Source: a virus
IMG/VR virus record: IMGVR_UViG_3300045988_159991
Coordinates: 1 to 40,310 of that record
Direction: 5' to 3' (one strand)
DNA length: 40,310 bases
Made by a program: the position numbers and the translations under genes. The notes under the pieces were generated by a model. The model worked only from the letters and a program-made list of their open reading frames with translations. It was not told the origin of the DNA and made no database searches. This document shows positions 1,104-16,548 of this stretch, piece after piece. Each line of letters starts with the position of its first letter. Position 1 is the stretch's first letter.

Positions 1104-3118
1104 TATTTATGCATCTTGCCTTCTTCGGGCAAGCTCCTTATGTTAATCCCGATTGAGGTTATTCTAGCGGGCTTAGTAGCACCGTCGTTTATGCCCTCCA
1201 AGCCAAATTGTAGCACCCTAAATCGCTTGTTCACCTCAAAATACAGTTCTGTATCGCCCGCCTTAGCTTTACCCTCACTAAATACCCAGTTGCCACCGTT
1301 TATCTTGTATTTCAGCCTAATAGTACAGCCCTGTGGTAATGGGTCAAAGGTAGCCACCATTCTAAGTAGCTCCTTAGCTTTCCAAGGGTAACTACCGTCA
1401 TATTCCAAACTCTCGTACTTAAACTTCTTAGCAGGCTTTGATGAGTTATTGACTACAGTTATATACCAGGTATCAGAGTTGTTGACGTTGTCGTGGATAC
1501 GATTAGAGATGTAGAGGTTTTCGCCAAAGTTCCAAATACCACCCACCTCAAAACTATACTTATCTGTATTACAGTTGTCGGGCAGTCCAGGTAAAGCGTA
1601 TGAGTAGTAGTAGCTGTTCGGGTAGTTCTTATCTAATGAGCCATAGCTGTAGACGCCAGCTCTAGTTGTAAGAGTTGTCTTGCCTGGATAAGCTAGCAAC
1701 AATATCCCTTTCCTCACAGTCATAGCGTGGTCATAGACTATTGTCTGATTGTCTACACCTGAAAACTCGCCTAGGTCACTGGTGAGCGTTCGTATCTTAG
1801 CGATAGCTTTTGAGCCAGTGTAAGCATATAAGCCGTTATCTATCACCATGTAGATGATGTTCTGATGAGAATACAAGCTTTGAGGTGCGCCCTCTTCCAA
1901 ATCTACTCTAAAGTTGACGTTGTCGGCGACACAATCCCAAAAGCATAAGCTGCCTTGTTGAAAGTCCCTCGATTGACCCTTGCCAACCCTTTCGCAGCCC
2001 ATCACGATATATTCATCTGAACTGGTCAAGCTGGTTATTTCCATGCCATCTACAGCACTGACGCGGTTAGCTTGCATTACCTCTGGCGTCTCTGCCTCAG
2101 CTCCTGTCGGTAGCCACTGCATCAGATATCGACCATTACCAACCAACAGGGTGCCGTCTTTATACGCCATTATCGGGTGATAGCCACTGCTAGTGATATT
2201 TAGGGCATTAGCATAGTATCTGAAGTGTAGACCGTACATTTTACCGCTCTCGTATGTATCGACCGTCCAATCGTTAGTATCGGCTACTAGGTGGATATGA
2301 TATTCAGTTCCGCCTGTCTTATAAGTCACAATTTCGATCGGTTTAGTGAAGTTAAAGTTGATAGTGCCGTCTGCTTGGATATCGCTAACCGACGCCTTGG
2401 CTCTAGCTATCTCTTTATTGGCATTATTATGTAAAATCAGTGTCATCTCACCTGAGGCTGGATGAGACCTGACCCGTACCGCTATCTTAGCCATCGGTGA
2501 GACATCGGGGATAAAAACACACTTATCATCGTCCTGTTCAGATAATGACGTCTTAACTACTGTTGAGCCTGCGCCGCCACTCTTAAATGACCACCTATCC
2601 ACACCATTGCCAGTTAAATAGCCGGCCGGGCTCCTGACTAATAACTGAGCTACCGTATTAGACGTGCTGTAATTTAAGCTATGAACTACCACTATGCTTT
2701 CAAGATTATCGCCGATAACGTTGTCAAAACTGTACAGCCTGTCGTTAGCCGTGATATACAGTGTATCGTTCATATTCTGATAAGCGATATCAGCTCTACT
2801 GACGCTATCTGTCCAAACGTTAGCCATGACCGTCGCTATATTAGCTCTGTCTACTTTAGTCAGCTTGCCGTGGTCAGTTATCATCCACTTGACGCCATCA
2901 GCTGATTGCGTCATGCCCGTAACTAGACCTAGCTCGGTAGTTTTGCGAATAATATCAGCCTCAGCCAAAACAGTCATAGCACTTGGCTCTAGTCTGGCGT
3001 CTAGACACTCACTGTCTGCGTAAGCGTTCTTGATGCCAACTTTCTTGCCCGAGCCCTGCCCGCCATAAAATGACGTCTGACAGATAACTAAATCTGTATT
3101 GTCGTATCGGCTAGCCAT
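1103..3118 (-). CDS. Large tail protein (671 aa), possibly nozzle / tail-tubular-B-like
   Basis: Long ORF with GGAGG 4-5 nt upstream of the ATG. It is beta-rich and repetitive (YSFDN, LYAYTGS type strands). The functional call is by position after the first gene of the tail operon and by size only. Confidence 0.85.
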   Translation of the reverse strand: MASRYDNTDLVICQTSFYGGQGSGKKVGIKNAYADSECLDARLEPSAMTVLAEADIIRKTTELGLVTGMTQSADGVKWMITDHGKLTKVDRANIATVMANVWTDSVSRADIAYQNMNDTLYITANDRLYSFDNVIGDNLESIVVVHSLNYSTSNTVAQLLVRSPAGYLTGNGVDRWSFKSGGAGSTVVKTSLSEQDDDKCVFIPDVSPMAKIAVRVRSHPASGEMTLILHNNANKEIARAKASVSDIQADGTINFNFTKPIEIVTYKTGGTEYHIHLVADTNDWTVDTYESGKMYGLHFRYYANALNITSSGYHPIMAYKDGTLLVGNGRYLMQWLPTGAEAETPEVMQANRVSAVDGMEITSLTSSDEYIVMGCERVGKGQSRDFQQGSLCFWDCVADNVNFRVDLEEGAPQSLYSHQNIIYMVIDNGLYAYTGSKAIAKIRTLTSDLGEFSGVDNQTIVYDHAMTVRKGILLLAYPGKTTLTTRAGVYSYGSLDKNYPNSYYYSYALPGLPDNCNTDKYSFEVGGIWNFGENLYISNRIHDNVNNSDTWYITVVNNSSKPAKKFKYESLEYDGSYPWKAKELLRMVATFDPLPQGCTIRLKYKINGGNWVFSEGKAKAGDTELYFEVNKRFRVLQFGLEGINDGATKPARITSIGINIRSLPEEGKMHK

Positions 3119-4013
3119 TTAGCCTCCAAGGTGATACTCGTGGGTCATTGACAGGCAGTCTTGGATATGGATTGATAACTCCATCTGACGTCTTCAAGCC
3201 ATATGTTGTTCTGTATCGCTCTACTAGCTCATCGTATAGTTGCTTATAATATCCTGCTGTCTGCAAATCTTTGCGCATCAGATAAAACTGTTGACAAGCA
3301 TAGTAAACGATAGCATCGTGATACTCTTCTGGAATATCGACGCTTTGTCCGATTGTAACAGTAGTATTATCTGAACTGTCACCTTCATAGTAGTTCTGTA
3401 GTAGCAGATGAGTATCGTCAAGTCGTCTATCTATTTTAATCGCTCGTTCATCTGGGAATATCATATAGCAGTTATCAGCCACATCAGATCTGAACTTGTC
3501 GCCACCCACAGCCTCGACAGCATCGCTATTAGCCTCTAGCTTAACCTTAACTGTGTAATCGTCGATATGTAATCTAGTCGCTTTAGCTTCATAAATGACT
3601 TTTAATCCATCAGTGACGTTGACTGCACTTGGTGGCAATAGCTCAATCTGGCGTGGTGTCTTGACAAAATAGTATGTCGGTTGTGAGGCTAAAGTTAGCC
3701 AGTTATGCTTTACAGCTAGATATTCGCTCGTGCTCTTTATCTCAATCAGCTCATTATCTCTAGCTGTCACAGCTGTTATTCTCAAAACGTCATCGCTCAG
3801 TTGATATGACGCCTGTTTAGCAATCAGATCGGTTGTTTTGGTTTTAGTTACAGGATATCGTCTAGCCAGAGAATTGACGAGCTGAGCACCTGAACAGATA
3901 TCTTTAGCTATTTTAACCAACTCATCTGAACTGTCATCTAAACCGCACAGCTGAGCTACTTCTGTTTTCATCTGAGTAAACGTCTTCATGTCTGTATTAT
4001 AACGTATTATCAT
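3111..4013 (-). CDS. Virion protein, first gene of the leftward late operon (adaptor / tail-tubular-A-like by position)
   Basis: 300-aa ORF. The ATG at 4013 lies inside the conserved 36-bp element and has no good SD. The internal ATG at 3989 is preceded by TATAAT-N6 (leaderless candidate), which would give 292 aa. Confidence 0.8.
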   Translation of the reverse strand: MIIRYNTDMKTFTQMKTEVAQLCGLDDSSDELVKIAKDICSGAQLVNSLARRYPVTKTKTTDLIAKQASYQLSDDVLRITAVTARDNELIEIKSTSEYLAVKHNWLTLASQPTYYFVKTPRQIELLPPSAVNVTDGLKVIYEAKATRLHIDDYTVKVKLEANSDAVEAVGGDKFRSDVADNCYMIFPDERAIKIDRRLDDTHLLLQNYYEGDSSDNTTVTIGQSVDIPEEYHDAIVYYACQQFYLMRKDLQTAGYYKQLYDELVERYRTTYGLKTSDGVINPYPRLPVNDPRVSPWRLNG

Positions 4014-4045
4014 GACGTCAACCTGATGATGTTATTACAATGATG
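4010..4045 (-). promoter_or_regulatory. 36-bp conserved late-operon element (inverted copy of 21705-21740)
   Basis: tcatgacgtcaacctgatgatgttattacaatgatg is the exact reverse complement of 21705-21740. It contains the TGACGTCA palindrome. Confidence 0.7.
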
Positions 4046-4061
4046 AATGTGGCTAAAATGC

Positions 4062-4119
4062 TTGACTTTCAATAAGCACTTTGCTATTATAATAGTGTCA
4101 AGTTAATAAGGAGGACAAC
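4062..4119 (+). promoter_or_regulatory. Early promoter-leader cassette P1
   Basis: TTGACT (4062-4067), then N14, TGc, TATTAT (4085-4090), then the conserved leader aatagtgtcaagttaataAGGAGGacaac and the ATG at 4120. It is nearly identical to the cassette at 7882. Confidence 0.8.
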
Positions 4120-4581
4120 ATGACAACTACAGCTATAGTTAAAGATATCGCTTTTCAAGAAGCACACGCCACGAACGTAACAGTTTCGTATTCAGCCGGC
4201 GAGTTTATTTTGCCAAAATGGTTTATCAACAAAAATCTTTCACAGAACCAAGCGTACGCAGTCAGCGTTGAAGGCTGTGGGAAAGCGGTCAAAGAGACAG
4301 AGAAAGCTGTTGATATCGAATTCACTACTGATTACGGAAAAGTCTGGCTTTGGTGTCCAAAGTCAATTCTCAAAACAATCGAAGAAGTTGCAGATGAGTT
4401 GATTGCGAGTGCGAAAAAGTTCAATGATAAGATGAATAAGCGTGCTGAGCTTATCGAGAAAATGAGGGCTTTGGGCGTCAAAGGCATCAGCAATCATCAG
4501 CGAACTGAGACAATTTTTAGCAAAGCTAAAGAGCAGGGTGTCGATGTTTCTGATATTGAAAAGTGGTATTTTGATAAATAA
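4120..4581 (+). CDS. Hypothetical early protein (153 aa)
   Basis: ORF directly behind P1 with a perfect AGGAGG. No motif recognised. Confidence 0.85.
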   Translation: MTTTAIVKDIAFQEAHATNVTVSYSAGEFILPKWFINKNLSQNQAYAVSVEGCGKAVKETEKAVDIEFTTDYGKVWLWCPKSILKTIEEVADELIASAKKFNDKMNKRAELIEKMRALGVKGISNHQRTETIFSKAKEQGVDVSDIEKWYFDK

Positions 4582-4594
4582 GAAAGGACGAATT

Positions 4595-4735
4595 ATGAGA
4601 GCATCAGTTTACAGAAGATTACAAGAACAGAGAATTATAGAATTGTCAAAGCTTGCGGTTTCTGTCGGTTTACTAGTGATTTTAAGCCTAATCTTCATCA
4701 TATCGTTTGGATGTGCACTAGCTAAGTTCAACTAG
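4595..4735 (+). CDS. Small membrane protein (46 aa)
   Basis: The ATG at 4595 follows AAAGGA at 5-nt spacing. There is a C-terminal hydrophobic helix (VGLLVILSLIFIISFGCALA). The ORF-track start at 4538 overlaps the upstream gene and lacks an SD. Confidence 0.6.
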   Translation: MRASVYRRLQEQRIIELSKLAVSVGLLVILSLIFIISFGCALAKFN

Positions 4736-5021
4736 TCTCATCTAGTTCAGACGCCTCTTCTACAGTAGTAGAGGGGGCGTTTTCTTTCGGTATAAAACCG
4801 TAATCTTTAGCACTTTCGGGATAATAATCGATGAAGTCTTGATTTGGCGAGCCATCAGGATTATGAGGCTGAATTAGTTCATGAGCGTGAGCAATCGCCT
4901 CGTTAGTTAGTTGGTTATCTTGACTAATGGCGCTTATGGTTGTATTAGATGAGTTAGATATAGACTGCTTTTCATCACGTGCAATCAGCTTGTTATCTAG
5001 CGTTATTGTCCACCCAGCCAT
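4728..5021 (-). CDS. Hypothetical protein (97 aa), last gene of the chaperonin operon
   Basis: ORF with an AAAAGGGGG SD. It overlaps the upstream gene end by 29 nt. Its acidic C-terminus overlaps the convergent terminator. Confidence 0.6.
   Translation of the reverse strand: MAGWTITLDNKLIARDEKQSISNSSNTTISAISQDNQLTNEAIAHAHELIQPHNPDGSPNQDFIDYYPESAKDYGFIPKENAPSTTVEEASELDETS
4761..4798 (+). terminator. Intrinsic terminator of the P1 unit
   Basis: A 13-bp stem (acgcctcttctac / gtagagggggcgt, two G.U pairs) with a 4-nt loop, followed by tttctttc. Confidence 0.65.
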
Positions 5022-5310
5022 AGCCTGCCCCCTTTTCTATTTCACGTGAATGTTCTGCTCTAATCTGAGCGGGTGTTTTAGTGCCGACTACGCCCGATAC
5101 TTTTCTGAGAGGTAATTGATTAGCGCCCTTGAACGGATCGGTCACTTTGCCCGTGACGCCATAGCCCGGCACTAGAACTCTAATAGCTCTCTCGTTTAAG
5201 TCATCTAATCGTTTGGTGGCATTACGGATATCCATGTCCAGATAGTGAACTTTAACAGCTACTACTATCTGTAGTATGACGATAGCGATGAATGATATGG
5301 CTTCTATCAT
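4993..5310 (-). CDS. Membrane-anchored protein (105 aa)
   Basis: The ATG at 5310 lies 1 nt after the GroEL-like stop (TAAAATG). There is an N-terminal TM helix (IEAISFIAIVILQIVVAV). Confidence 0.7.
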   Translation of the reverse strand: MIEAISFIAIVILQIVVAVKVHYLDMDIRNATKRLDDLNERAIRVLVPGYGVTGKVTDPFKGANQLPLRKVSGVVGTKTPAQIRAEHSREIEKGAGYGWVDNNAR

Positions 5311-5311
5311 T

Positions 5312-6760
5312 TTAATCCAAGTCCTTTTCAAAAGGTAATGCTACTTTAATGCTGAGCAACTGCTTGACCGCACTAGCTGAATTAGCTACTGCTTCTTTAA
5401 TAGCCAAGGCACTATCTAGAACGCCTGCTTCTCTCATATCCTTAATCTCATCAGTTGTTAGATCTAAGCCTTGTTTTGGTGTGGTGCAATCATCAGAGGT
5501 GATCAGGCTGTAGATATCTTTCAGATAATTTAAGCTTTGAGAAGTGAGTGCAATATCCCTGAGTGCTGTGCCTGCGCCGTAAAGTGCGCCATGATTTTTA
5601 GCTGAAAGAACAGCACAGACGCCATCATCTATTCTTAATTTAGCTTCATGTCGTTCAGCTAAAGTATTAGCTCCGACAGAGATTTTAACTGTTTTAGATT
5701 TTAGACGCTTTTGACGGTCTTCAGGTAGCTTTTTAATATAGCTGTCAAGGTCTTGATTTAGCGAGCCATTTAGAACAGTTTCAGTGCTTGTGACTTGAGC
5801 ATTTTCAACCGTGCCTAGATATTCTTCTGAAAATTGTTCAGGCGATAGAGTAAATGGTTTACAGTTAGAATATTTTGCGACGTCTTGCAAGAACTCGTCA
5901 CGATTTTTGAAAGGCGGAGCAATAATCGAGACGTCAAGTTTGCCAGCTAGTTTATTAGAGACGATTGTTTCAAGTGCTTGACCAATGACATCAGCGATGA
6001 GAATTATTCCTTGACCAGGCTTAAGTTTAATCGCCCGCTCGAGGATCGGAATGATATCACTGTCAGTCTTGACAGTTTTGGGCAAAACTATTATGAGAGG
6101 ATTATCGTAATAGCTCTTGAAAGAGGTCAAGTCATTAGCTAAAGCGATAGTTGTTAATCCTTGACTGAAAGCAAAGCCCTCTACAATATCAACGTCAATC
6201 TGAGGCAGTTCTTGTTCAGATACGGTGATAGCACCGCCATCAGAATTAGTAACGGCTAAGTCGACGGCTTGAGCAAATCGCTCATCGCCTGTCGCCGTCA
6301 AGGCAATATTGTAATAATCTTTATCAGTCAGATCAGACGGTTTAATAGTAACTGCGTCAAGTCTCTTTAGAACATCGAAAGTGTCATGATCAATCATGCT
6401 GTTCAATTCACGTGGTGAGATGTCTTTTGAAAGAGGGCGATAGTTGTCGTAAGCAAGTTTAGTCAAGACTACTGTTAAAGTAGTGCCATCGCCAGCTTTC
6501 AGATCTGTTTTGGCACTAGCCTGACGAGCGATTGATATAGCGGCGTTTTCAATTGAATCGGACACTTGTAAACTGGCTATATTAGTAATTCCGTCGTGCG
6601 AGACGGTCGGCTCACCATATCGATTTTCAATTAAGACATTACCTGAATTAGCCCCAAAAGCACAGATAGCTGTATCGTATATCTTAGTCAGACCACTCTT
6701 TATCTTAGACGTCAAGTCGTCGCCTGTTACTACATTTCGCACTAAATTAGTTTTTGGCAT
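5312..6760 (-). CDS. groEL: GroEL-like group I chaperonin (Cpn60 family), 482 aa, lacks the GGM tail
   Basis: Matches GroEL as recalled from memory. KAGDGTTLTVVLT matches AGDGTTTATVLA. VSHDGIT matches ITKDGVS. VDIVEGFAFSQG matches LDVVEGMQFDRG. IILIADVIGQALETIV matches LIIAEDVEGEALATLV. GVLDSALAIKEA matches GILDPTKVTRSA. Confidence 0.85.
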   Translation of the reverse strand: MPKTNLVRNVVTGDDLTSKIKSGLTKIYDTAICAFGANSGNVLIENRYGEPTVSHDGITNIASLQVSDSIENAAISIARQASAKTDLKAGDGTTLTVVLTKLAYDNYRPLSKDISPRELNSMIDHDTFDVLKRLDAVTIKPSDLTDKDYYNIALTATGDERFAQAVDLAVTNSDGGAITVSEQELPQIDVDIVEGFAFSQGLTTIALANDLTSFKSYYDNPLIIVLPKTVKTDSDIIPILERAIKLKPGQGIILIADVIGQALETIVSNKLAGKLDVSIIAPPFKNRDEFLQDVAKYSNCKPFTLSPEQFSEEYLGTVENAQVTSTETVLNGSLNQDLDSYIKKLPEDRQKRLKSKTVKISVGANTLAERHEAKLRIDDGVCAVLSAKNHGALYGAGTALRDIALTSQSLNYLKDIYSLITSDDCTTPKQGLDLTTDEIKDMREAGVLDSALAIKEAVANSASAVKQLLSIKVALPFEKDLD

Positions 6761-6772
6761 CGTACACCTTTC

Positions 6773-7051
6773 TTAATTTAATTTATAGCCCATTATTTTA
6801 TTGTTCTGAATAAAGACGTAACGCTTGTCGTTAATTACGATCGGCTCGCCCGATTGGTGTGGCTGAAAATAAACTGTTGTGCCTTGTGGGCGAGTAATAG
6901 CATCCTTGCCAGAGCTTTTAATGAGAGTACCTTCTGTGATCTGCTCATACTTTTCACGAGAAAGTGTCAAGCCTGCGTCGCTTGTGGACGGCAGTTCCAC
7001 TAAAGTATAGCCAGGCGTCGGTTCTAACAATTTATCCCCCTTTTCAGTCAT
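6773..7051 (-). CDS. groES: GroES-like co-chaperonin (Cpn10 family), about 92 aa
   Basis: It sits immediately upstream of the GroEL-like gene. The pattern is Cpn10-like (LLEPTPGYTLVEL ... TEGTLIKSSG ... TVYFQP ... YVFIQNNKIMGY). The ORF-track TTG start at 7093 lies inside a hairpin, so I use the ATG at 7051, which has a weak SD. Confidence 0.65.
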   Translation of the reverse strand: MTEKGDKLLEPTPGYTLVELPSTSDAGLTLSREKYEQITEGTLIKSSGKDAITRPQGTTVYFQPHQSGEPIVINDKRYVFIQNNKIMGYKLN

Positions 7052-7074
7052 AATTACTACTGTTATTTTACTAA

Positions 7075-7102
7075 AAATGACGCTATATTGCAAGCGTCAT
7101 TT
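7075..7102 (-). terminator. Hairpin (partial terminator/attenuator) between the 168-aa gene and the groES-like gene
   Basis: A perfect 9-bp stem (aaatgacgc / gcgtcattt) with a 10-nt loop. On the minus strand it is followed by tttttag. Confidence 0.5.
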
Positions 7103-7122
7103 AGGTTGATCAGAGTGATCGG

Positions 7123-7629
7123 CTAAGCTATTTTTCCACCACCTTCTCTAATCCAGGTGTAATCGCCGGCTTTAGCTTTGACTTCCATAACGCCAAGAGC
7201 CTCGTTACCGGTTGCGCCCTTTACCACACCATTGAAAACACTGCTGTCAATAGAGACCGGGGTGTTAGCCGCGACATCAAAGTCAAGAGCGTCAGCCAGG
7301 CTGATATAGCCGTTGGTGTTCACGCCCTGAACCAGATACTGCACGTTAGCGATTGTTGCGATCGCATCAGTGAACTTGACCACCTCATCAGCGGTAAAAG
7401 TCGCAGCTATCTTTATGGTCGACATGCCTGCCGAAGCTGCTTCAGCATTGCCGCTCTTGTTACTTTTTTGAGCGATCACCTTGTCGCCAGGAACGACATC
7501 GCCGCCAATTCTACTGTAGCGATAGACTCGACCGTCAGCGGTGCGGGCGAACTTGCCTAGAACCTCCTGCTGCACATCTGACACGGCGTGAATATCACTG
7601 TTATTTAATACATTTCGTACATTTGCCAT
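7123..7629 (-). CDS. Hypothetical Ala/Val/Gly-rich protein (168 aa), possibly a decoration-like structural protein
   Basis: Good SD (AAGGAAGG). The C-terminal ALGVMEVKAKAGDYTWIREGG weakly recalls DUF2190-type capsid decoration proteins. Function is uncertain. Confidence 0.8.
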   Translation of the reverse strand: MANVRNVLNNSDIHAVSDVQQEVLGKFARTADGRVYRYSRIGGDVVPGDKVIAQKSNKSGNAEAASAGMSTIKIAATFTADEVVKFTDAIATIANVQYLVQGVNTNGYISLADALDFDVAANTPVSIDSSVFNGVVKGATGNEALGVMEVKAKAGDYTWIREGGGKIA

Positions 7630-7654
7630 AAACCTTCCTTTCGTTTATAGAATT

Positions 7655-7663
7655 ATTCTAACA
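7655..7663 (-). promoter_or_regulatory. Candidate extended -10 promoter for the leftward chaperonin operon
   Basis: The minus strand reads TGtTAGAAT about 26 nt upstream of the ATG at 7629. There is no good -35. Confidence 0.35.
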
Positions 7664-7770
7664 GAGAAAGTAGCTGATCGGCTGGTCAAGCTGTTTTTAT
7701 ATGGGAGCATTGATTGTAGTTTTGTCAATATAAAAAGCACTAGCAACGAGATATGAAGCTTGAGGACAAC

Positions 7771-7878
7771 ATGACCGACGCTAGTGCTTATGACAGTATA
7801 GTAGCGCAGATCGCCCAGCAGGTCAATATGAGTTATCCACAGTTTATGTTTTTATTACATCGTTATTATAGTGCTTAA
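7771..7878 (+). CDS. Possible 35-aa ORF in the divergent control region
   Basis: gaggacaacATG mimics the cassette RBS. The product is MTDASAYDSIVAQIAQQVNMSYPQFMFLLHRYYSA. Its RBS and start lie in the loop of the 10-bp inverted repeat at 7735-7789. Confidence 0.3.
   Translation: MTDASAYDSIVAQIAQQVNMSYPQFMFLLHRYYSA
7827..7841 (+). promoter_or_regulatory. DnaA-box-like site (TATGAGTTATCCACA) upstream of P2
   Basis: A perfect TTATCCACA at 7833-7841. The same 15-mer occurs at 10247-10261. Both end exactly 40 bp before the -35 hexamer. Confidence 0.6.
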
Positions 7879-7881
7879 GTC

Positions 7882-7939
7882 TTGCTTTTCAATAAGCACT
7901 TTGCTACTATAATAGTGTCAAGTTAATAAGGAGGACAGC
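7882..7939 (+). promoter_or_regulatory. Early promoter-leader cassette P2
   Basis: TTGCTT, then N14, TGc, TACTAT, then aatagtgtcaagttaataAGGAGGacagc and the ATG at 7940. Confidence 0.75.
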
Positions 7940-8698
7940 ATGACAGAAGTAGTAGATATTAAGAAAGCTATCAGAAGCTATCTGAGCAGCAATATTAAGA
8001 AGCAGATGGCGATCGAGAATAGGATTATCGGTCATTATCTGGACAGAAATGCGTGCTATATCAGCGACGTAGCGATTATCAAATACTATTTAGCTGATGA
8101 TCCTGATGTAGAAGAGATTTGGCAACTTTTTGATATTAGAGATACAAAGCAGAATAGAGAAGAGTTTTATCAGATGCTACTCGATTGTCTTGACAAGCGA
8201 AGAATTGCTGTCAAAGTATGGCGCAAGCGTAACAACAGTAGTGCATTTATGAACGATTATGATGTTGAGCTTGGCGTCTTCTATCTGATGTATCAAGATC
8301 CAAGACATGCGCTATCAGACGAATACGCGATTGTTCGTAAAGAGATGGTCAAGAATGCTATGACTAAAGTTTTCTTTAGTCACAAGCTATATCAGACTAG
8401 ACAAGATATTCTTAAACGTGTCGAGAAAGTAGCTGTTGAGGATAAAGACTGGGATAAGAATCCCGGCATAAAAGCAACGGGTGAGTTGCAAGATATCTCT
8501 AAAGAGGTAGTTGATGCTGTATTGGACACGTTAAAGCTGACTATGCACGATATCATTTACGAAGCAGTCGGTTTAGGCTGGTTTGAAAGCAAAGACTCTC
8601 TTATAATTCGAGACATGAGCTGGGTAGCTTACGAGATTGTTGAGAAGTTGGCTATCGAGGCTAGGCTTGGCGCATCGGATTATCTGTACTACAGATAA
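7940..8698 (+). CDS. Hypothetical early protein (252 aa)
   Basis: ORF directly behind P2. No motif recognised. Confidence 0.85.
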   Translation: MTEVVDIKKAIRSYLSSNIKKQMAIENRIIGHYLDRNACYISDVAIIKYYLADDPDVEEIWQLFDIRDTKQNREEFYQMLLDCLDKRRIAVKVWRKRNNSSAFMNDYDVELGVFYLMYQDPRHALSDEYAIVRKEMVKNAMTKVFFSHKLYQTRQDILKRVEKVAVEDKDWDKNPGIKATGELQDISKEVVDAVLDTLKLTMHDIIYEAVGLGWFESKDSLIIRDMSWVAYEIVEKLAIEARLGASDYLYYR

Positions 8699-8708
8699 TG
8701 AGTAAAAA

Positions 8709-8738
8709 TTATACCCTCTTATAAAAAAGAGGGTATAA
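8709..8738. terminator. Perfect 12-bp hairpin (attenuator, or terminator for antisense transcription)
   Basis: Arms ttataccctctt / aagagggtataa with loop ataaaa. The T-run (ttttt) follows only on the minus strand; the plus-strand tail is weak (tctagttt). Confidence 0.5.
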
Positions 8739-8776
8739 TCTAGTTTAGCAGTTAGTTAAAACTAAAGGAGGTTATT

Positions 8777-9094
8777 ATGACTGCAGATAACAACACACCT
8801 GGTTTTATTGTACCAGATGTAGGTGAGAAGTCAAGGTTTCATGTTGACACTTTTGACTCTACAATTCTTTATGACAATAGCATGACCAGTAACCAGAAGA
8901 TAGTTTACTTCTACTACTGTCAACACGACCAGATTAGCGAGACGGCTGAGCAAGTCGCTAGCTTTCTTTATTTAGGCGTCAGCACCGTGAAAGAGGCGTG
9001 GCGTCGGCTTGAGGAAGATGGCTATTTGAAGTTAATTGAAAGAAGGGGGCGGGTACGAACGTATTCTGCCATTTTTAAGTGCGGGCTGTGGTAA
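8777..9094 (+). CDS. Winged-helix DNA-binding protein (105 aa)
   Basis: SD AAAGGAGG. AEQVASFLYLGVSTVKEAWRRLEEDGYLKLIERRG is a MarR/DnaD-type wHTH pattern, paralogous to the N-terminus of the next gene. Confidence 0.75.
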   Translation: MTADNNTPGFIVPDVGEKSRFHVDTFDSTILYDNSMTSNQKIVYFYYCQHDQISETAEQVASFLYLGVSTVKEAWRRLEEDGYLKLIERRGRVRTYSAIFKCGLW

Positions 9095-9119
9095 AGAATA
9101 AGGAATAAGGAGGGAGAAC

Positions 9120-9998
9120 ATGCCAAGCAAAAATAAGCAAAACTATCTATTAACGCCACAATCGCTTTTTGCGTGTGATAAGTTCAGCTTAGCCGAGAAG
9201 GTGGTATTGGCTAGGGCGATGAGTTTCGGTAATCATCGCTATTACGAGTCGGTCGAGAAGACAGCATCGTTCTTGGGCATAAGCGAGTCGGTAGTTGAAA
9301 AGGCGAGGGCTAAGTTTATCAAGCTAGGCTACTTTAAGAAGGTCGGCTATAGCAACAATAGGGTAGTTTATGAAGTATGCGACGACATTATCGAGAAAGA
9401 TTGTCAAGTGAGAAGAATTACAAAAAATGACATTTCTTTTTGCCCGAAACAATCGCAGAATATGCAACCAACAATCGCAGAATCTGCGATTTCTCAAAAC
9501 GATACATATATATATAATAATAAAGAAGATAATAAAGATATAACCCCCCTTACCCCCCTTAGGGGGGCAGTGGCTGTCCAAAAAGTTAAAAATGATGAAA
9601 AAGAAGAGGTTGACAATATCTTCAATTTATGGCTTAGCTGTTTTGGGCTTTCAGGGCGCAAATTGACGCCCGGTCGGCAAGTGAAGATTAGGCGTCGTTT
9701 GAAGGATTGCGGTAAAGAGCAACTGGAGCTGGCTATCCAGAACGCCAGTCAGGACTACTTCTACCGTGGCGACAATGACCGTGGCTGGCAGGCGGATATC
9801 GACTACATCTGCCGTTCAGCCGAGATTGTCGAACGGTTGGCGAATATGACGCCTAGAGCCGAAAAGAAGCTGACCTGGTGGGAGAGAAAGCAGAAAGAAG
9901 AAGATGAGGAGCGGGAAGAGAGAATTAGACATCCAAAATATGACGAATTTGGTAGAGAAGCGCGAAGCGATGAAGAAGGGAACTTAGTCTATGTTTAG
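9120..9998 (+). CDS. Replisome organiser / replication initiator (N-terminal wHTH plus C-terminal conserved phage domain)
   Basis: The N-terminus has a wHTH (TASFLGISESVVEKARAKFIKLGYFKK). The C-terminal segment FNLWLSCFGLSGRKLTPGRQVKIRRRLKD...YFYRGDNDRGWQADIDYICR resembles the phage replication-protein C-terminal domain (Phg_2220_C-like, recalled from memory). An ori-like repeat cluster lies inside the gene. Confidence 0.7.
   Translation: MPSKNKQNYLLTPQSLFACDKFSLAEKVVLARAMSFGNHRYYESVEKTASFLGISESVVEKARAKFIKLGYFKKVGYSNNRVVYEVCDDIIEKDCQVRRITKNDISFCPKQSQNMQPTIAESAISQNDTYIYNNKEDNKDITPLTPLRGAVAVQKVKNDEKEEVDNIFNLWLSCFGLSGRKLTPGRQVKIRRRLKDCGKEQLELAIQNASQDYFYRGDNDRGWQADIDYICRSAEIVERLANMTPRAEKKLTWWERKQKEEDEEREERIRHPKYDEFGREARSDEEGNLVYV
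9448..9567. other. Candidate origin of replication inside the organiser gene
   Basis: Two 14-bp iterons (aacaatcgcagaat) at 9448 and 9470, 22 bp apart. A 17-bp palindrome atcgcagaatctgcgat (9474-9490). An AT-rich run of about 40 bp (9503-9543). Then cccccctta cccccctta gggggg (9544-9567). Confidence 0.55.
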
Positions 9999-10251
9999 TA
10001 TGAAAGAACCAGTTGCGCTGTGGAGCTGGCGAAAAAAGTTTTTCAAGAAGGTAGATCTTAGAAGCCCATTTTTAAGCAATCCGAGCTATATCAAGCTGTA
10101 TGAGACCACAGCTGGTGCTTGGCTAGCCTGGCGAGCGGTAGCAAAGATCGAGGATGGCAAAGTCACATTTTCAGAAGGATCAGAGCCGGTCAGCGTCTAT
10201 GAAGACGCTAGGTTAGATAGCATCTATGCTCAGCGTCACCCATATCTATGA
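9991..10251 (+). CDS. Hypothetical protein (86 aa)
   Basis: ORF overlapping the end of the organiser gene by 8 nt. Its stop lies within the DnaA-box-like 15-mer. Confidence 0.7.
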   Translation: MFSMKEPVALWSWRKKFFKKVDLRSPFLSNPSYIKLYETTAGAWLAWRAVAKIEDGKVTFSEGSEPVSVYEDARLDSIYAQRHPYL

Positions 10252-10261
10252 GTTATCCACA
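10247..10261 (+). promoter_or_regulatory. DnaA-box-like site (TATGAGTTATCCACA) upstream of P3
   Basis: A perfect TTATCCACA at 10253-10261, 40 bp before the TTGACA at 10302. Confidence 0.6.
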
Positions 10262-10301
10262 TTACGTTGTAAATAAAGTCATGATCGCATAAGTATACCG
10301 C

Positions 10302-10356
10302 TTGACATATTCAAAGCACTATGAGACAATAATAATGTCAAAGAAAGGAGGACAAC
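10302..10356 (+). promoter_or_regulatory. Early/middle promoter-leader cassette P3
   Basis: TTGACA, then N14, TGa, GACAAT, then aataatgtcaaagaaAGGAGGacaac and the ATG at 10357. Confidence 0.7.
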
Positions 10357-10599
10357 ATGAACGACGACAACGGTAACGAGATCAAGGGATTGGCAGTAGC
10401 CTATGATGGTTGCCATAAGATTTACATCTGTGAGACTGAGGCTGATATCGATCGGATGAAGAAGTTAAACTATCAGATCCACGATATGAGTGAGCTAGAG
10501 GATATCTACAACAGGTCTTGTAGTCTGAGGTTTATCAACAGCGCAGATCTGAAGAAGTGCTTTGTAGCACAAAGGTTAGATGACGACGATGAGTACTAA
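10357..10599 (+). CDS. Hypothetical acidic protein (80 aa)
   Basis: ORF directly behind P3 with AGGAGG. Confidence 0.85.
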   Translation: MNDDNGNEIKGLAVAYDGCHKIYICETEADIDRMKKLNYQIHDMSELEDIYNRSCSLRFINSADLKKCFVAQRLDDDDEY

Positions 10600-11497
10600 C
10601 AACAACGCTGTCGTGCCTCTCGACAAGTACTTGCGCCAAAACGCAATCCAGCAACGCTTATTGGAGAGGCTATCCGAAAGTGAAATGAGGAGCTTTGCTG
10701 CTGAGCTAATGGACGTTTACAAAAGCAATCCAAAGTTACAGGAGTGTCCGCCCGCGTCAGTAACGTCAGCCGGCCTGATCGCTAATACGATCGGACTGTC
10801 GCTGAATAGCAATCTCGGCTTAGCATTTTTAGTGCCGTATAAAAAAGGTGAGGCTGGATATCGATGCCAATTCCAGATCGGCTATAAGGGGTTGATGCAG
10901 CTGGCTTTGGCGTCGGGTGCTTATTCACGAGTGAACGCCAGCGACGTTAAAGAAGGTGAGTTGACCAGCAGGGATCGGCTAACAGGTGAGTTTGATTTTG
11001 ACTGGGAGATGGACGAGATTGCACGTGAAAAGTTAAAGACGATTGGTTATGTAGCGTTCTTTAGGCTGAACAACGGTTTTGAGAAAATGTTATACATGAC
11101 TAACGAACAATTGTATGATCACGCCAAGAAGTTTTCAAAAAGCTTTGGCGGTAAGTATCCAAAAAGCAGTCTCTGGCATACCGATTTTGAGTCGATGGCT
11201 AAGAAAACTGTATTGAAGCTGTTGCTGAGTAAGTTTGGACCGATATCGCCAAAGCTATCGATGGCGATCCGAGATGATCAGAAAGTCGACGGAAAATACG
11301 TCGATAATCCAGATAACAACCATGAAGGTGCTGATTTTCAAGCTAAGCGGGCTGAGATGAAAAATAACTTAAAGAAAGAGGAGGATGGAAAGACTGAACA
11401 CATAGAAGAAGCAGAGATTGTTACTGATGAGAGTCAGATATCTGAAGAAGAATTGGAGCTGATATTTAACAGTTGTGAAGAAGGATACAATGGTTAA
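10580..11497 (+). CDS. recT: RecT-family single-strand annealing protein
   Basis: LAFLVPYKKGEAGYRCQFQIGYKGLMQLALASGAYSRVNASDVKEGE is the RecT core pattern. The C-terminal tail is acidic. An alternative ATG is at 10589. Confidence 0.85.
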   Translation: MTTMSTNNNAVVPLDKYLRQNAIQQRLLERLSESEMRSFAAELMDVYKSNPKLQECPPASVTSAGLIANTIGLSLNSNLGLAFLVPYKKGEAGYRCQFQIGYKGLMQLALASGAYSRVNASDVKEGELTSRDRLTGEFDFDWEMDEIAREKLKTIGYVAFFRLNNGFEKMLYMTNEQLYDHAKKFSKSFGGKYPKSSLWHTDFESMAKKTVLKLLLSKFGPISPKLSMAIRDDQKVDGKYVDNPDNNHEGADFQAKRAEMKNNLKKEEDGKTEHIEEAEIVTDESQISEEELELIFNSCEEGYNG

Positions 11498-12473
11498 AAT
11501 AATACCGATATCGCAAGATACCGAGCGTGATGCTTGGATGGAGTTTAGACGAGGCAAAATTACGGGGACGTCGATTGGCAAGCTGTATGGTAAGACCAGA
11601 AGCAAAGTGGATAAAGAGCAATATGGTGTTTTCAATGACAAGCCTAACCAGGCTTTATGGAAAATTGTTGCTGAACGGATCGCTGTCGGCGATGATGGCG
11701 AGCCACCCCGAGAGAGAGGAATAAGGCTTGAGCATACAGCTTGTAAGCTGGCAGTTAAGAAACTTGGGCTGAAGCACGGCGAATATAACGGCTATGTTTT
11801 TCAATCTGAAGTATCAGAATACGCCATGTCGTCACCTGATAACTTTGAGCACGTCGATAACCCGACTTGGTTGATGGAGATTAAATGTCTATCAACGGCT
11901 AATCACTTGAAGATGGTCTTTGAAGGGGTCGTCGATGAAGAGTATCGCTGGCAAGTAGCTGATAGTTTTCTGAATTGCCCAAGTGCTAAAGTACTTTATT
12001 TTGTCTTGTTTGACCCAAGAGTAGTAATTGATGAGTTAGCACTGCACATCATCACCGTGAAGCGTGAAGATATCACTGATGATATTGAGACATTAGCCCA
12101 AGTGCGAGACCGAGCGTTGAAGCAGATTGACAATATTTTGGAGCAATTGAATGATATTGCTAAGAATAAGACAAAAGAGGAGGGCTTGCTAGACGATGAT
12201 GATATTAAGGCGATTGGAGCTGATGACGGGATCAGACAATACTACCCGGAAGAAGATGGCGAGGCGGGTGCGGAATTACCCGATCTACCAGAGTTGCCCG
12301 TACTGCCCGAAGAACCGGATGTATCTAGCTCATTGTCTGGCGAGTTATCTGGCGGAGAGAGAGGCGACATTGAGGCAGAGGGAAAAAATATGGCGAGCAA
12401 TGCAGTCTGTAGAAAGCAACGAGCAGGCAAAAAGATTGAAGAAACGCTGGAGCGAGCTAAGGAGATATTCTAA
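11490..12473 (+). CDS. YqaJ / lambda-Exo-like PD-(D/E)XK recombination exonuclease
   Basis: KITGTSIGKLYG and SSPDNFEH...WLMEIKCLS form a PD..ExK motif. It is paired with recT. The ATG at 11490 has GAAGGA 5 nt upstream; the ORF-track GTG at 11475 is less likely. A long acidic/Pro-rich C-terminal extension follows. Confidence 0.8.
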   Translation: MVKIIPISQDTERDAWMEFRRGKITGTSIGKLYGKTRSKVDKEQYGVFNDKPNQALWKIVAERIAVGDDGEPPRERGIRLEHTACKLAVKKLGLKHGEYNGYVFQSEVSEYAMSSPDNFEHVDNPTWLMEIKCLSTANHLKMVFEGVVDEEYRWQVADSFLNCPSAKVLYFVLFDPRVVIDELALHIITVKREDITDDIETLAQVRDRALKQIDNILEQLNDIAKNKTKEEGLLDDDDIKAIGADDGIRQYYPEEDGEAGAELPDLPELPVLPEEPDVSSSLSGELSGGERGDIEAEGKNMASNAVCRKQRAGKKIEETLERAKEIF

Positions 12474-13048
12474 TGGCGGGAACTAAAATAGGTGCCAAGA
12501 AAGCATCTAACACAATGAAGAAACGGTACGGCAATGATTATTACAGTCGGATCGGTAAGGTTGGCGGTCAGAACGGTCGTACGGGCGGTTTTTATGCTGA
12601 CCGTGAAGTGGCTAGAAGCGCAGGTGCTAAAGGCGATCGGATCAGCAAGCGTGGTAGCGTCAAGGATAAAAATAAACGACCACTTTGGACTCTGCTAATA
12701 AATTGGCGTCGGATTGTCAAAGAATACATTAGCGAGCATGCACATGACATAGCATACGACGTCGTAGATACAGCTTACGGCAAGGGCGTTAGCGTGGATG
12801 ATTTGTCTGATGCGAATATTGCGGCTGGATACTCAGCCGGCGACCTGGCTGATATATATATGGACGAGATTATCGAAGAAGTCGACACTACAGACGGTGC
12901 TTATGAGCCAAGTGAGTATGTTAGTAACAATTTATACAACATCCTTGCTGATGCTTTGCTAGACTACATCACCGACTCAAAACAGAGTGATCTGTATTGG
13001 CAGGCTTACTGTGAGTTTAAGGATGTGCAAGCGCGTGACGATGGATAG
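12473..13048 (+). CDS. KGG-repeat (YciG/GsiB-like stress-protein motif) protein with an acidic C-terminal domain
   Basis: YGNDYYSRIGKVGGQNGRTGGFYADREVARSAGAKG matches the KGG stress-repeat pattern. SD AAGGAG at 8 nt. Confidence 0.7.
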   Translation: MAGTKIGAKKASNTMKKRYGNDYYSRIGKVGGQNGRTGGFYADREVARSAGAKGDRISKRGSVKDKNKRPLWTLLINWRRIVKEYISEHAHDIAYDVVDTAYGKGVSVDDLSDANIAAGYSAGDLADIYMDEIIEEVDTTDGAYEPSEYVSNNLYNILADALLDYITDSKQSDLYWQAYCEFKDVQARDDG

Positions 13049-13382
13049 TATGCGCTTAAAGTCTATATCGTGCGGTGGGTTATACATGGCCTGCAAGAGG
13101 AGCGAGAAGTTTACTCTCTATCCGTGGGGTAACTTAGGCTACAAGGGGCTGATAGTTGTAACGATCAGCATGAAGTCTCATTATCGCAAGGCTGATGGGC
13201 GTTGGGCAACTAACCGTCTAAGAGAGCTATCTTTGCTAAGCAGTACGCTGGCTGACAGTTATGGGTATGCGATAGTCGTAGCCAGATCTGACGAGGAGGC
13301 TAACGATATTGCAACCTCATACGCTGACGGCAAGCCCGAAGCTAGACGTCTTATCCGATATTTTCAAGGCGTTGTAGATTAG
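13041..13382 (+). CDS. Hypothetical protein (about 113 aa)
   Basis: The ORF-track start at 12987 overlaps the upstream gene by 62 nt. The ATGs at 13041 and 13050 are more plausible, but neither has a clear SD. Confidence 0.6.
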   Translation: MDSMRLKSISCGGLYMACKRSEKFTLYPWGNLGYKGLIVVTISMKSHYRKADGRWATNRLRELSLLSSTLADSYGYAIVVARSDEEANDIATSYADGKPEARRLIRYFQGVVD

Positions 13383-13391
13383 GCATACCAC

Positions 13392-13446
13392 TTGACTTTC
13401 TATAAGCACTATGAGATACTAATAGTGTCAAAGAAAGGAGGACAAC
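13392..13446 (+). promoter_or_regulatory. Early/middle promoter-leader cassette P4
   Basis: TTGACT, then N14, TGa, GATACT, then aatagtgtcaaagaaAGGAGGacaac and the ATG at 13447. Confidence 0.7.
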
Positions 13447-13617
13447 ATGAACGAAGCAAGCCAGCGTAAGTATCACTGGCGCAACGGTCGAGTGATAATT
13501 GAGCGAGAGATTATCGACGACCATAACGATAAAAGCATTGCGATAGGCTTAGGGATAGTACTTCTATTATTCTTACAACTAGCAATACATGCTTTTGGAG
13601 CATTACTCATAGGATAA
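13447..13617 (+). CDS. Small membrane protein (56 aa), absent from the ORF track
   Basis: Translated by hand: MNEASQRKYHWRNGRVIIEREIIDDHNDKSIAIGLGIVLLLFLQLAIHAFGALLIG. It occupies the same position behind the cassette RBS as the other three first genes. Confidence 0.75.
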   Translation: MNEASQRKYHWRNGRVIIEREIIDDHNDKSIAIGLGIVLLLFLQLAIHAFGALLIG

Positions 13618-13620
13618 TGT

Positions 13621-13905
13621 ATGTGTAGCGGTTTTTCTAAAGAGGAGGGATTACGGGTAAAAGTACTAAGAAAGCTAGCCCAGCCATTCAAAAAGCTCAG
13701 GCTAAGCAAGCTGTCACTGGTAGCCGATTATCTAGGTTCAAGATTTACTTTGAAGCGATTTAACGGCAAGGCTAGACAGACTAAGTGTGAGGTCGAGCGT
13801 CGTCATAAGATATTCAACGATACAAGACCTCACGACGACACGGACGACTTGATAGAAGCATTAGAGTTTGAAAACTTTATGCGAGACGAATATGAGAAAA
13901 AGTAA
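13621..13905 (+). CDS. Hypothetical basic protein (94 aa)
   Basis: The ATG is 3 nt after the previous stop (coupled). There is no own SD. Confidence 0.6.
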   Translation: MCSGFSKEEGLRVKVLRKLAQPFKKLRLSKLSLVADYLGSRFTLKRFNGKARQTKCEVERRHKIFNDTRPHDDTDDLIEALEFENFMRDEYEKK

Positions 13906-13925
13906 TTTAACTTAAGGAGATAGTA

Positions 13926-14156
13926 ATGAGTAAGCTGACGCACGAAAAACTTCTGGAGTCGAAGCATAACTTCGACTTAGATATGGAGGTTATCTTTGCG
14001 CTTATGGGCGTGTTGCACAACGGTGGCTTAAGCGAGAGTGCCGTCACTGATATCGCCGATAAGCTAGAAAGTTATGTAATTGCCACTAGAGATATGTATA
14101 AAGACTTATGGCGATATGTCGATGAGACTGCGCCGAGCGAGAAAGGAGAGAAGTGA
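13926..14156 (+). CDS. Hypothetical protein (76 aa)
   Basis: ORF with SD AAGGAG. Confidence 0.8.
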   Translation: MSKLTHEKLLESKHNFDLDMEVIFALMGVLHNGGLSESAVTDIADKLESYVIATRDMYKDLWRYVDETAPSEKGEK

Positions 14157-14644
14157 ATAAAAAGTCAATTCTTGATCCGTGTTGCGGTGGCAAGATGTTT
14201 TACTTCGACAAGCATCATCCGCTCGTCATATGTGGCGATGTGCGTCAAGAGTCCGTCTCTATGACCGATCGGGGCAAGCTTAGGTCTCTGGACATTACTC
14301 CGGATGTGATACTGGACTTTACCTGTATGCCGTTTTTGGACGATAGCTTTAGCTTCGTGGTTTTTGACCCGCCTCACCTCATAAATTGCGGGAAGAACAG
14401 TTGGCTGGCGAAGAAGTATGGCAAGCTCGATAAGGACAATTGGCAAGAGACATTGAGCGCAGGCTTGAGCGAATGTATACGTGTGGTTAAGCCCGGTTGT
14501 GTTGTAGCTATGAAGTGGAGCGAGGGTGACATATCGACGGCTAAACTTCTAAAGGCATTGCCCTATAGCCCAGCCTTTGGCGATAAACAGGGCAAGAAGC
14601 GATGGTTGTTTTTTATTAAAGGAATGAAAGGAGGACAACAATGA
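14153..14644 (+). CDS. Small SAM-dependent amino-methyltransferase (DPPH motif), putative DNA N6-A/N4-C methylase
   Basis: Motif I-like ILDPCCGGKMF comes before motif IV FDPPHL. GTG start overlaps the previous stop (GTGA). 163 aa. No partner restriction gene. Confidence 0.55.
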   Translation: MNKKSILDPCCGGKMFYFDKHHPLVICGDVRQESVSMTDRGKLRSLDITPDVILDFTCMPFLDDSFSFVVFDPPHLINCGKNSWLAKKYGKLDKDNWQETLSAGLSECIRVVKPGCVVAMKWSEGDISTAKLLKALPYSPAFGDKQGKKRWLFFIKGMKGGQQ

Positions 14645-14952
14645 TTGATGAAGAGGTTATTGCTACAACAACAGCGTGTGTAGACTTGGGACAGCTTGCA
14701 AAAGCGGTTGCGGCTGTCTGTGCAATGATTGAAGCGGTTATCGAGCGACATGACGATACATCGACAAGTTTTAACGATGAGATACTTGCGCTAGGCAATG
14801 AAATGAAAGTTCATGCCGGCCATATCTACAATGTGGCAATCGAGTTCAGTGATGACGTCTCGCTTACAACTAAGATTAGGATTAAGTCTGAAATTGACAA
14901 GCTGGATAACCTCATCGATGCGTATGAGCAGGTTCAGAAGAAGTCTAAATAA
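14641..14952 (+). CDS. Hypothetical helical protein A1 (103 aa), paralogue of 15725..16048
   Basis: Shared blocks include KAVxxVCAMxEAxIExxDDxST, LGNEMKxHA and TTKIxIKSEIDKLDxLIDAxEQVQKK. Confidence 0.85.
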   Translation: MIDEEVIATTTACVDLGQLAKAVAAVCAMIEAVIERHDDTSTSFNDEILALGNEMKVHAGHIYNVAIEFSDDVSLTTKIRIKSEIDKLDNLIDAYEQVQKKSK

Positions 14953-14963
14953 GAAAGGAGTGG

Positions 14964-16403: not shown

Positions 16404-16548
16404 CAACAATGTGCCTCATTTTATCTGTGATGGTGCGTCGGTGACCCGTCTCGGCGATGCTCTAAGAGAGAGGCAAAAGAAGATAGACGGTTGTTGCGCT
16501 CAGTGTAAAGATTTAAGTAATAAGAAAGGAGTAAACAATGAAAAGTAA
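16393..16548 (+). CDS. Small protein C2 (51 aa), absent from the ORF track, shares the CCAQC module with C1
   Basis: Translated by hand: MKIDNNVPHFICDGASVTRLGDALRERQKKIDGCCAQCKDLSNKKGVNNEK. SD AAGGAG at 7 nt. Confidence 0.65.
   Translation: MKIDNNVPHFICDGASVTRLGDALRERQKKIDGCCAQCKDLSNKKGVNNEK

Follow-up and report, generated by a model that had tools for sequence, protein, structure and literature searches.

The window analyzed here is the whole 40,310-nt stretch of virus DNA held in IMG/VR as IMGVR_UViG_3300045988_159991. Its first and last 55 nt (1-55 and 40256-40310) are identical, an overlap of the kind that a k = 55 assembler leaves when the molecule is circular; the genome is ~40,255 bp, and the junction of the window ends is spanned by one tail-operon gene. 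In this window, the hexamer TATAAT stands exactly six nucleotides (N6) before an ATG (TATAATNNNNNNATG) at exactly three places, all of them gene starts: those of the first tail-operon gene (site 1), the candidate terS gene of the head/packaging operon (site 2), and a 275-aa gene inside the tail operon (site 3). The features concerned are as follows.

~4046-21704: early region with five canonical −35/−10 promoters
From terS at 21755, (+): head/packaging operon, rightward
From 3989 via the window end to 33773, (−): tail operon, leftward
3111-3989, (−): first tail-operon gene, 292 aa, with PHROG matches to structural/tail proteins; start ATG 3989-3987, proposed +1
3996-4001, (−): site 1 TATAAT, an exact match, conserved in relatives; proposed −10 box of the tail-operon promoter
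4001-3987, (−): site 1 15-mer, TATAATACAGACATG
4010-4045, (−): copy of a 36-nt repeat upstream of the tail gene, CATCATTGTAATAACATCATCAGGTTGACGTCATGA, holding a spurious ATG at 4013
21654-21697, (+): intrinsic terminator (hairpin and T-run) closing the early/middle operon, 8 nt before the 36-nt repeat
21705-21740, (+): copy of the 36-nt repeat upstream of terS, inverted and 100% identical to 4010-4045
21743-21748, (+): site 2 TATAAT, conserved in relatives; proposed −10 box of the head/packaging operon
21743-21757, (+): site 2 15-mer, TATAATTAGTCTATG
21755-22234, (+): terS candidate, 159 aa, immediately upstream of terL; ATG at 21755, proposed +1
38582-39409, (−): 275-aa gene with a PHROG match (phrog_37153); ATG at 39409, proposed +1
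39416-39421, (−): site 3 TATAAT, conserved at exactly N6; proposed internal −10 box
39421-39407, (−): site 3 15-mer, TATAATAAGACTATG

An earlier note on this DNA had named these three sites as TATAAT-N6-ATG at gene starts, and each was recovered at its place. The note had also suggested counting the motif against a shuffled control; three occurrences were observed versus 0.48 expected from dinucleotide shuffles, and a single shuffle in 100 likewise reached three. TATAAT occurs 18 times in the window. Across spacings of 3-10 nt before an ATG, N6 yielded three matches, all at the starts of long open reading frames (ORFs), and N4, N7, and N8 yielded one match each, none at a gene start. With 57 gene starts among 1239 ATGs as the base, the probability of at least three hexamers at N6 before a gene start is ~3e-7 for hexamers placed randomly and still ~0.004 when all 18 are confined to the 60-nt upstream regions. 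When the motif was relaxed to TAnAAT-N6-ATG, all four matches fell at gene starts, versus 0 of 17 at other spacings (Fisher p = 1.7e-4). The observation is real and is not due to chance. A mere co-occurrence of an AT-rich hexamer with three start codons could appeal to the one shuffle that also reached three, but it is hardly credible and effectively refuted by matches that are all gene starts, occur at N6 only, and are conserved down to 32-46% protein identity. The single TATAAT-N6-GTG mentioned in the note was confirmed at 4077-4091 (−), within the first early promoter.

The note had further held that nearly every gene carries a strong Shine-Dalgarno sequence (SD) and that the three sites are where it is lacking. 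The first part stood, as most of the 57 surveyed starts carry AAGGAG(G); the second did not, as more than three starts have no recognisable SD, further examples being 23789, 30555, 30778, 31233, 39417, 15999, 12987, and 20809. Several of these SD-less starts overlap the upstream gene or have uncertain start codons. The start codon is ATG at all three sites. No SD core match precedes 3989 or 39409, and the sole match in the SD scan at 21755, GAGGT, would lie upstream of the proposed transcript because it overlaps the start of the hexamer and ends ~10 nt before the ATG.

The sites were compared with close and distant relatives, among them the sole phage relative in GenBank, the TM7 phage DolZOral124_53_65 (L046, MG269973.1), whose terL shows 66.6% nucleotide identity and which shares a GroEL-like gene, an exonuclease, and the structural module with the window. 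Judged from its similarity to the TM7 phage, the virus may infect Saccharibacteria (candidate phyla radiation, CPR); no clue to a prophage or host emerged when 185,579 species genomes were searched with TerL.

At site 1, the note's preference for a tail-gene start at 3989 rather than 4013 was borne out by the homologues: all of them, even distant ones whose SD is well placed, open with MKTFTQM (MRTFTQM in the TM7 phage). In four relatives, the counterpart of the 4013 ATG is blocked: it meets an in-frame TGA in contigs 166694, 144796, and 154683, and it is out of frame and ends at a TAA in contig 137474. The ATG at 4013 itself sits within the 36-nt repeat, and the same ATG in the terS copy opens a 4-codon ORF. 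In 10 close relatives, TATAAT (TATAGT in one) lies exactly 6 nt before the tail-gene ATG, and the N6 spacer varies among acagac, tgagat, acagat, and acagtt. In the TM7 phage and in four distant relatives with 37-43% protein identity, a box reading TGATATAAT, CGTTATAAT, TGTTACAAT, or TGATACAAT is separated from the MKTFTQM-type start by a 19-24 nt leader with AGGAG. The CGTTATAAT of the window matches exactly the box of one of them, L028, whose leader has an SD. In our reading of this alignment, the tail −10 box would be ancestral, and the clade of the window would have lost ~14-18 nt of the leader that held the SD. As the upstream neighbour of the tail gene is divergent in the window arrangement, the promoter must lie within ~130 nt, and no SD is present in this stretch. 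The alternative pair ATAACA-18-GATAAT (4035-4006), with a ~10-nt SD-less leader, was given less weight; its GATAAT is replaced in contig 137474.

At site 2, the terminator at 21654-21697 lies directly upstream, which places the terS promoter within the last 57 nt before the ATG. An in-frame TAG is found two codons upstream of this ATG. TATAAT-N6-ATG recurs at terS in 10 close relatives with six different spacers. In L039 (contig 3300026549_000020), whose terS shares 46% protein identity in an alignment that begins at residue 7, a terminator is followed by gaggtTATAAT-tagaac-ATG, and no 36-nt repeat is present. More distant terS genes are leadered (TGTATAAT, ~75 nt, GGGAGG). The pre-terS terminator of L010 carries an A-to-G change that retains pairing as G-U.

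At site 3, M1 and D2 are invariant among the homologues of the 275-aa protein, and no in-frame start lies upstream in the window. The note had proposed an internal promoter in the leftward operon, which is supported by the finding of TA-N-AAT exactly 6 nt before the 275-aa ATG in six lineages, down to 32% protein identity. The lineages, with protein identity to the window, hexamer, and spacer, are as follows.

Window clade (identity not applicable): TATAAT, aagact
L056 (86%): TACAAT, aagacc
L057/L075 (40%): TATAAT, gtagtt
L058/59/83/84 (32%): TAAAAT, aagact
TM7 phage / L079 (36%): TATAAT, agagct
L080/81 (35%): TAGAAT, agtatt

Five positions of the hexamer are invariant, the third shows all four bases, and the six flanking bases on each side vary. 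The third position of a −10 box is its least constrained one. Base 3 of the hexamer here opens a codon of the upstream ORF, which reads TAA, CAA, AAA, or GAA, so that the stop codon shifts from lineage to lineage while the hexamer and its distance to the ATG stay fixed. Among the 50 annotated genes of the TM7 phage, only the orthologue of the 275-aa gene carries the motif. A conserved TACCCC.. stretch further upstream was rejected as regulatory, as it encodes the conserved (L/I)NTPYK C-terminal peptide of the upstream protein.

The promoter scan (at least 4 of 6 matches per hexamer) found no −35 element 16-18 nt upstream of any of the three hexamers, which sets them apart from canonical sigma-70 promoters; the TTGACG of the 36-nt repeat is only 8 or 14 nt from the hexamers of sites 1 and 2. 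A TG extension is also absent at all three (cgtTATAAT, aggTATAAT, attTATAAT), so that they are not extended −10 promoters; a TGnTATAAT-type feature is found at the tail gene of the distant relatives (TGATATAAT, TGTTACAAT, TGATACAAT). The sequences (TATAATAC, TATAATTA, TATAATAA) also differ from the T4-type late promoter TATAAATA (gp55/gp33). Pfam and PHROG scans of 38 ORFs, early and middle ones among them, recognised no integrase, sigma factor, RNA polymerase, activator, or invertase, and no sigma-like match was obtained in the early/middle ORFs; as no integrase was recognised, the phage is apparently lytic. Sequence features of leaderless genes are present instead: a TANNNT-type hexamer at 6-7 nt, no SD, an AUG start, and conservation while the flanks vary. 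Given the N6 gap, the ATG begins with the seventh base past the hexamer, where primary-sigma polymerase usually starts. A pyrimidine closes each of the 20 distinct N6 variants, which yields Y(−1)R(+1), and the first 7-16 nt of the predicted mRNAs were unpaired in RNA structure prediction.

We consider it likely, from motif and conservation together, that the three genes are expressed as leaderless transcripts from −10-only promoters. The three TATAAT hexamers, and the weaker GATAGT/TAAGAT before a 397-aa gene described below, would serve as −10 boxes of promoters without a −35 element, read by the host primary-sigma RNA polymerase. With the hexamer ending 6 nt before the ATG, transcription would begin at the start codon's A, neither a 5' leader nor an SD would be present on the mRNAs of terS, the first tail gene, and the 275-aa gene, and ribosomes would bind the 5'-terminal AUG directly. 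The transcription start position, the leaderless translation, and the late timing are our inferences, and a phage factor may shift the polymerase from −35-dependent to −10-only promoters. The early genes follow a different design, a canonical TTGACx-17-TAxxAT and then a ~25-nt leader with AAGGAGG, seen in a family of four early promoters at 4061-4125, 7881-7945, 10301-10365, and 13391-13455 (+). Each of these four is embedded in an operator-like CTTGAC...GTCAAG inverted repeat, and a near-consensus leftward promoter, TTGAAA-16-TATAAT, was noted at 7892-7865 (−).

The 36-nt inverted repeat, perfect between its two copies and overlooked in the earlier note, precedes both site 1 and site 2; its distance to TATAAT is 8 nt in front of the tail gene and 2 nt in front of terS. 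Sites 1 and 2 thus share upstream sequence through the repeat, yet their −10 boxes appear to be independent, because each matches the corresponding box in relatives that have no repeat. Repeat features were seen in further genomes, loci L012, L017, L093, L099, L101, and L106 among them, and the two copies carry the same variant within a genome and different variants between genomes, as follows.

166694: aacaGcatc
094417: catcatGttgacg
130562: caAgttgacg
154683: cagCttgacg
3300019471_000058: caaCttgacg
137474: gacgtTatgagtTata

Concerted evolution of the copies is most simply explained by gene conversion. Compared with the window and with four further complete contigs, contig 144796 has an inverted early segment. 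The late region is all that is present in five contigs of 23-25 kb, which end at or in the repeat. Sample 3300019471 has a late contig of 24,236 bp and an early contig of 16,135 bp, and their overlap is exactly the repeat they share, 32 nt long. As k = 55 exceeds the repeat length, such contig breaks are expected only if both orientations are present, and we infer that they are in this sample. The pattern suggests genome isomers made by recombination. A RecT/YqaJ-type pair recombines homologies of ~35-50 bp, and the RecT/YqaJ pair of this phage is a likelier cause of the inversion than an invertase; no serine invertase or resolvase domain was found in the ORFs scanned, which separates the case from the Gin/Hin/Cin inversion class. 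Because inversion, as in 144796, exchanges what precedes the two late operons, a promoter of its own within ~56 nt is needed by each, and this gives independent support for promoters immediately before the ATGs. No meaningful match to the repeat region was found in GenBank phages. A divergent promoter on the reverse strand of the repeat (ATGACG-18-TACAAT) was unsupported, as its 9 of 12 matches are no commoner than in shuffles, and a homology of the repeat 3' end to the 3' end of the ancestral upstream gene, seen by eye, was too weak to claim.

The repeat could itself be the essential late determinant, a site for a phage activator or repressor or a phage-specific promoter, with TATAAT-N6-ATG secondary. 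Perfect copies head both late operons and contain the palindrome TGACGTCA, and copying the repeat to the tail operon would have co-regulated the two after the tail module came to lie opposite to its TM7-phage orientation. We regard this as quite improbable, given that distances of 8 and 2 nt to the hexamer are incompatible with a single element of fixed spacing, that terS of L039 keeps TATAAT-N6-ATG without the repeat and site 3 has none, and that the within-genome identity of the varying positions fits gene conversion rather than protein-DNA co-evolution; moreover, Pfam and PHROGs pointed to neither a regulator nor a sigma factor nor a single-subunit RNA polymerase in the ORFs scanned. As a regulatory add-on, the repeat can coexist with leaderless promoters.

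Two further starts resemble the three sites.

32519-32527, (+): weaker site 4, TGgTAAGAT (N9) or GATAGT (N6) before the 397-aa gene at 32534, after a terminator
29091-29096, (+): possible fifth case, TAAAAT-gagggt-ATG, before a 110-aa gene at 29103, found by enumeration

The pattern before the 397-aa gene is present as the earlier note described it. The terminator at ~32478-32509 has compensatory stem changes among close relatives, and after it comes tggTAAGATAGT-aa(c/t)aag-ATG, with invariant hexamers and a variable spacer, and either reading would place the start at or within 3 nt of the ATG; this is a weaker case because only close relatives were found. The start at 29103 is ambiguous, since GAGGG could be a closely spaced SD and its relatives are near-identical only. 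A TANNNT-N6-ATG at 31233 was rejected as a coupling overlap.

The motif was also enumerated across the family in 125 kb from 15 loci of distant relatives, a gene start being defined as the opening ATG of an ORF 60 aa or longer. TAnAAT-N6-ATG fell at gene starts in 7 of 10 cases, versus 4 of 52 at spacings 2-5 and 7-12 (background 8%; p = 7e-5, or 0.004 with the site-3 orthologues counted once). One of the new cases was a 66-aa ORF of the TM7 phage, with TATAAT-N6 before ATG 18485, directly after a terminator. The annotated coding sequence there, 18285-18506 (−), has a TTG start that falls in the terminator T-tail; by its sequence it is probably mis-annotated, with a true start at ATG 18485 that would be another leaderless candidate. 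A terminator followed by hexamer-N6-ATG thus occurs at four places: terS and the 397-aa gene of the window, terS of L039, and position 18485 of the TM7 phage. The major-capsid-like gene (27347) has a TAAAAT box of its own and a 20-nt leader with AAGGAG (27299-27346, +), so that internal late promoters would be both leadered and leaderless. Upstream of 2554 (−) in the TM7 phage, orthologous to the capsid-like start, TGTTATAAT and a leader follow a terminator.

Several points weigh against leaderless transcription from these hexamers. Without a TG or a −35 element, the boxes would be weak on an E. coli-type polymerase unaided, and no activator or sigma gene was recognised. The literature on leaderless mRNA or translation in Saccharibacteria/CPR returned nothing relevant. 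The upstream 261-aa ORF runs into the hexamer of site 3 with its final sense codon and its TAA stop (39419-39417), and the conservation of the hexamer could be partly coding; ~36% of Leu/Ile codons are xTA. In L076-78, L082, and L085-87, the orthologous junction has no hexamer and shows an AGGT/GGTGG-like sequence, and the upstream gene has a different C-terminus; the leaderless architecture of the 275-aa gene would therefore be lineage-specific, gained or lost within the family. At terS, a promoter-like TTGACG-16-TAGACT (21576-21603) and then the terminator precede the gene, and read-through transcripts may enter terS besides. A 29-aa hydrophobic ORF (21491-21580) lies before this promoter-like site and the terminator, and L039 (~3400-3500) has an analogous arrangement of TGATATAAT, ~55 nt, and a terminator. 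The pre-terS cassette may be a short RNA or attenuator-like.

These observations bear on two other explanations. Long transcripts could arise by terminator read-through or antitermination and be translated without an SD through an A/U-rich region or by termination-reinitiation coupling, TATAAT being a by-product of A/U-richness or of coding and stop codons. The promoter-like site and terminator before terS in both the window and L039 fit this, as does the TAA inside the site 3 hexamer, whose 7-nt distance to the ATG would permit coupling; other genes of the window are also SD-less and overlap their neighbours. We nevertheless find it unlikely. A/U-richness leaves unexplained the five of six invariant hexamer positions amid variable flanks, the fixed N6, and the pyrimidine at −1, and in the distant relatives the box is too far from the start, ~20 nt upstream and with an SD in between, to act as a translation signal. 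The divergent neighbour of the tail gene provides no co-oriented transcript in the window arrangement, and the swapped operon contexts of 144796 again require a promoter within ~56 nt of each operon.

The lambda pR'-tR' arrangement also resembles the cassette before terS. Transcription could accordingly be thought to start upstream, with TATAAT as a sigma-dependent −10-like pause where a lambda Q-like antiterminator loads, and a promoter-like site, 60-90 nt, and a terminator do lie upstream of terS in the window and in L039. This is very improbable, since the hexamer lies downstream of the terminator and not between promoter and terminator, coding begins 7 nt beyond the hexamer, a cassette of this kind is absent from the tail operon in the common arrangement, and no Q-like gene was recognised.

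Leaderless −10-only promoters and the repeat can be combined in a broader proposal, which we put forward tentatively and regard as doubtful in its entirety. In a Saccharibacteria-infecting lineage, the late operons would be self-contained through −10-only leaderless promoters, and the repeat would be both a shared late-control site and a RecT/YqaJ substrate that continually flips the early region, so that populations would consist of two isomers; the loss of the SD leader of the tail gene would be recent.

Elsewhere in the window, 5312-6760 (−) encodes a divergent Cpn60/GroEL-like protein (Pfam E = 3.6e-26), as also annotated in the TM7 phage, next to a weak Cpn10-like protein, its chaperonin partner, at 6773-7093 (−). 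A RecT and YqaJ exonuclease recombination pair, an RNA ligase and polynucleotide kinase-phosphatase (an RNA-repair pair), and a small DNA methyltransferase were also noted (10580-12473; 17734-19622; 14153-14644). Diverged direct repeats (14680-14943 / 15761-16024 and 15661-15716 / 16456-16511, identities of 78% and 93%) mark a small array of paralogous early genes with no function assigned. A 50-nt near-tandem repeat of 96% identity (33607-33656 / 33670-33719) lies at the 3' end of the 397-aa gene, and where the head and tail operons converge, a strong hairpin with a 14-bp stem (33725-33756) separates them and has the look of a bidirectional terminator. Scans of the window for tRNAs and Rfam families gave no matches.

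For annotation, gene callers that expect an SD will misplace such starts, as at 3989 and at 18485 of the TM7 phage. The sites suggest a promoter grammar for a little-studied phage group, in which early genes would use −35/−10 promoters and SD leaders and late operon starts would be −10 only and leaderless. The tail gene, with an SD leader in distant relatives and none here, offers a natural before/after pair for how leaderless genes arise. Should the host be a Saccharibacterium, these sites would give the first hint found that leaderless translation matters in that phylum, and if the broader proposal were true, the ribosomes of ultrasmall bacteria would translate leaderless mRNA efficiently. 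The 36-nt repeat would explain why assemblies fall apart into two contigs, a late one of ~24 kb and an early one of ~16 kb, and the suggested isomers would be misjudged by binning and completeness tools.

Among known systems, the lambda cI mRNA from PRM is the classic leaderless phage mRNA, reportedly from work of Shean and Gottesman in 1992 (as cited in PMC12340547). As proposed here, its transcript begins at the A of the AUG and its −10 box abuts the coding sequence; PRM, however, is an activator-dependent lysogeny promoter for a repressor, whereas the genes here head or belong to structural operons. The repeat alone recalls the G segment of Mu with Gin and the C segment of P1 with Cin, which are invertible segments flanked by short inverted repeats. 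The inverted repeats are ~34-36 bp and the flanked segment occurs in both orientations in each case, but here the segment is the whole 16-17.7 kb early region, there is no tail-fibre switch, and inversion leaves the coding sequences unchanged.

In Deinococcus radiodurans, TANNNT 6-7 bp upstream of the ORF was shown experimentally to drive leaderless genes (PMC12340547). The sites described here are like those of Deinococcus-Thermus in having a −10-type hexamer 6-7 bp before the start, no SD, and no requirement for a −35 element, and in coexisting with SD-led genes in the same genome. They differ in that start sites and the need for this spacing were put to experimental test there and the motif serves about a third of host genes (PMC12340547), whereas a few phage starts are proposed here from sequence and conservation, and the host probably belongs to another phylum. 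Transcripts of the Thermus phages YS40 and Lalka27a are mostly leaderless and start at the initiator codon (bioRxiv 10.64898/2026.04.20.719267), and in the Thermus phage P23-45, gp39 brings about a switch to −35-independent middle/late promoters (PMC7403470). The Thermus phages and this phage share early promoters of the −35/−10 type and later promoters without a −35 element, with transcripts that start (here as a proposal) at the initiator codon's A or G. Leaderless transcripts are the majority in the Thermus phages, the −10 box there is extended (TGn) or TAGGGT, and gp39 disables −35 recognition, whereas this phage has few proposed leaderless operon starts and no TG extension, and no gp39-like factor was identified. 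The feature is thus of a known kind, leaderless genes with a −10 box beside the ORF, in a new and poorly known phage lineage.

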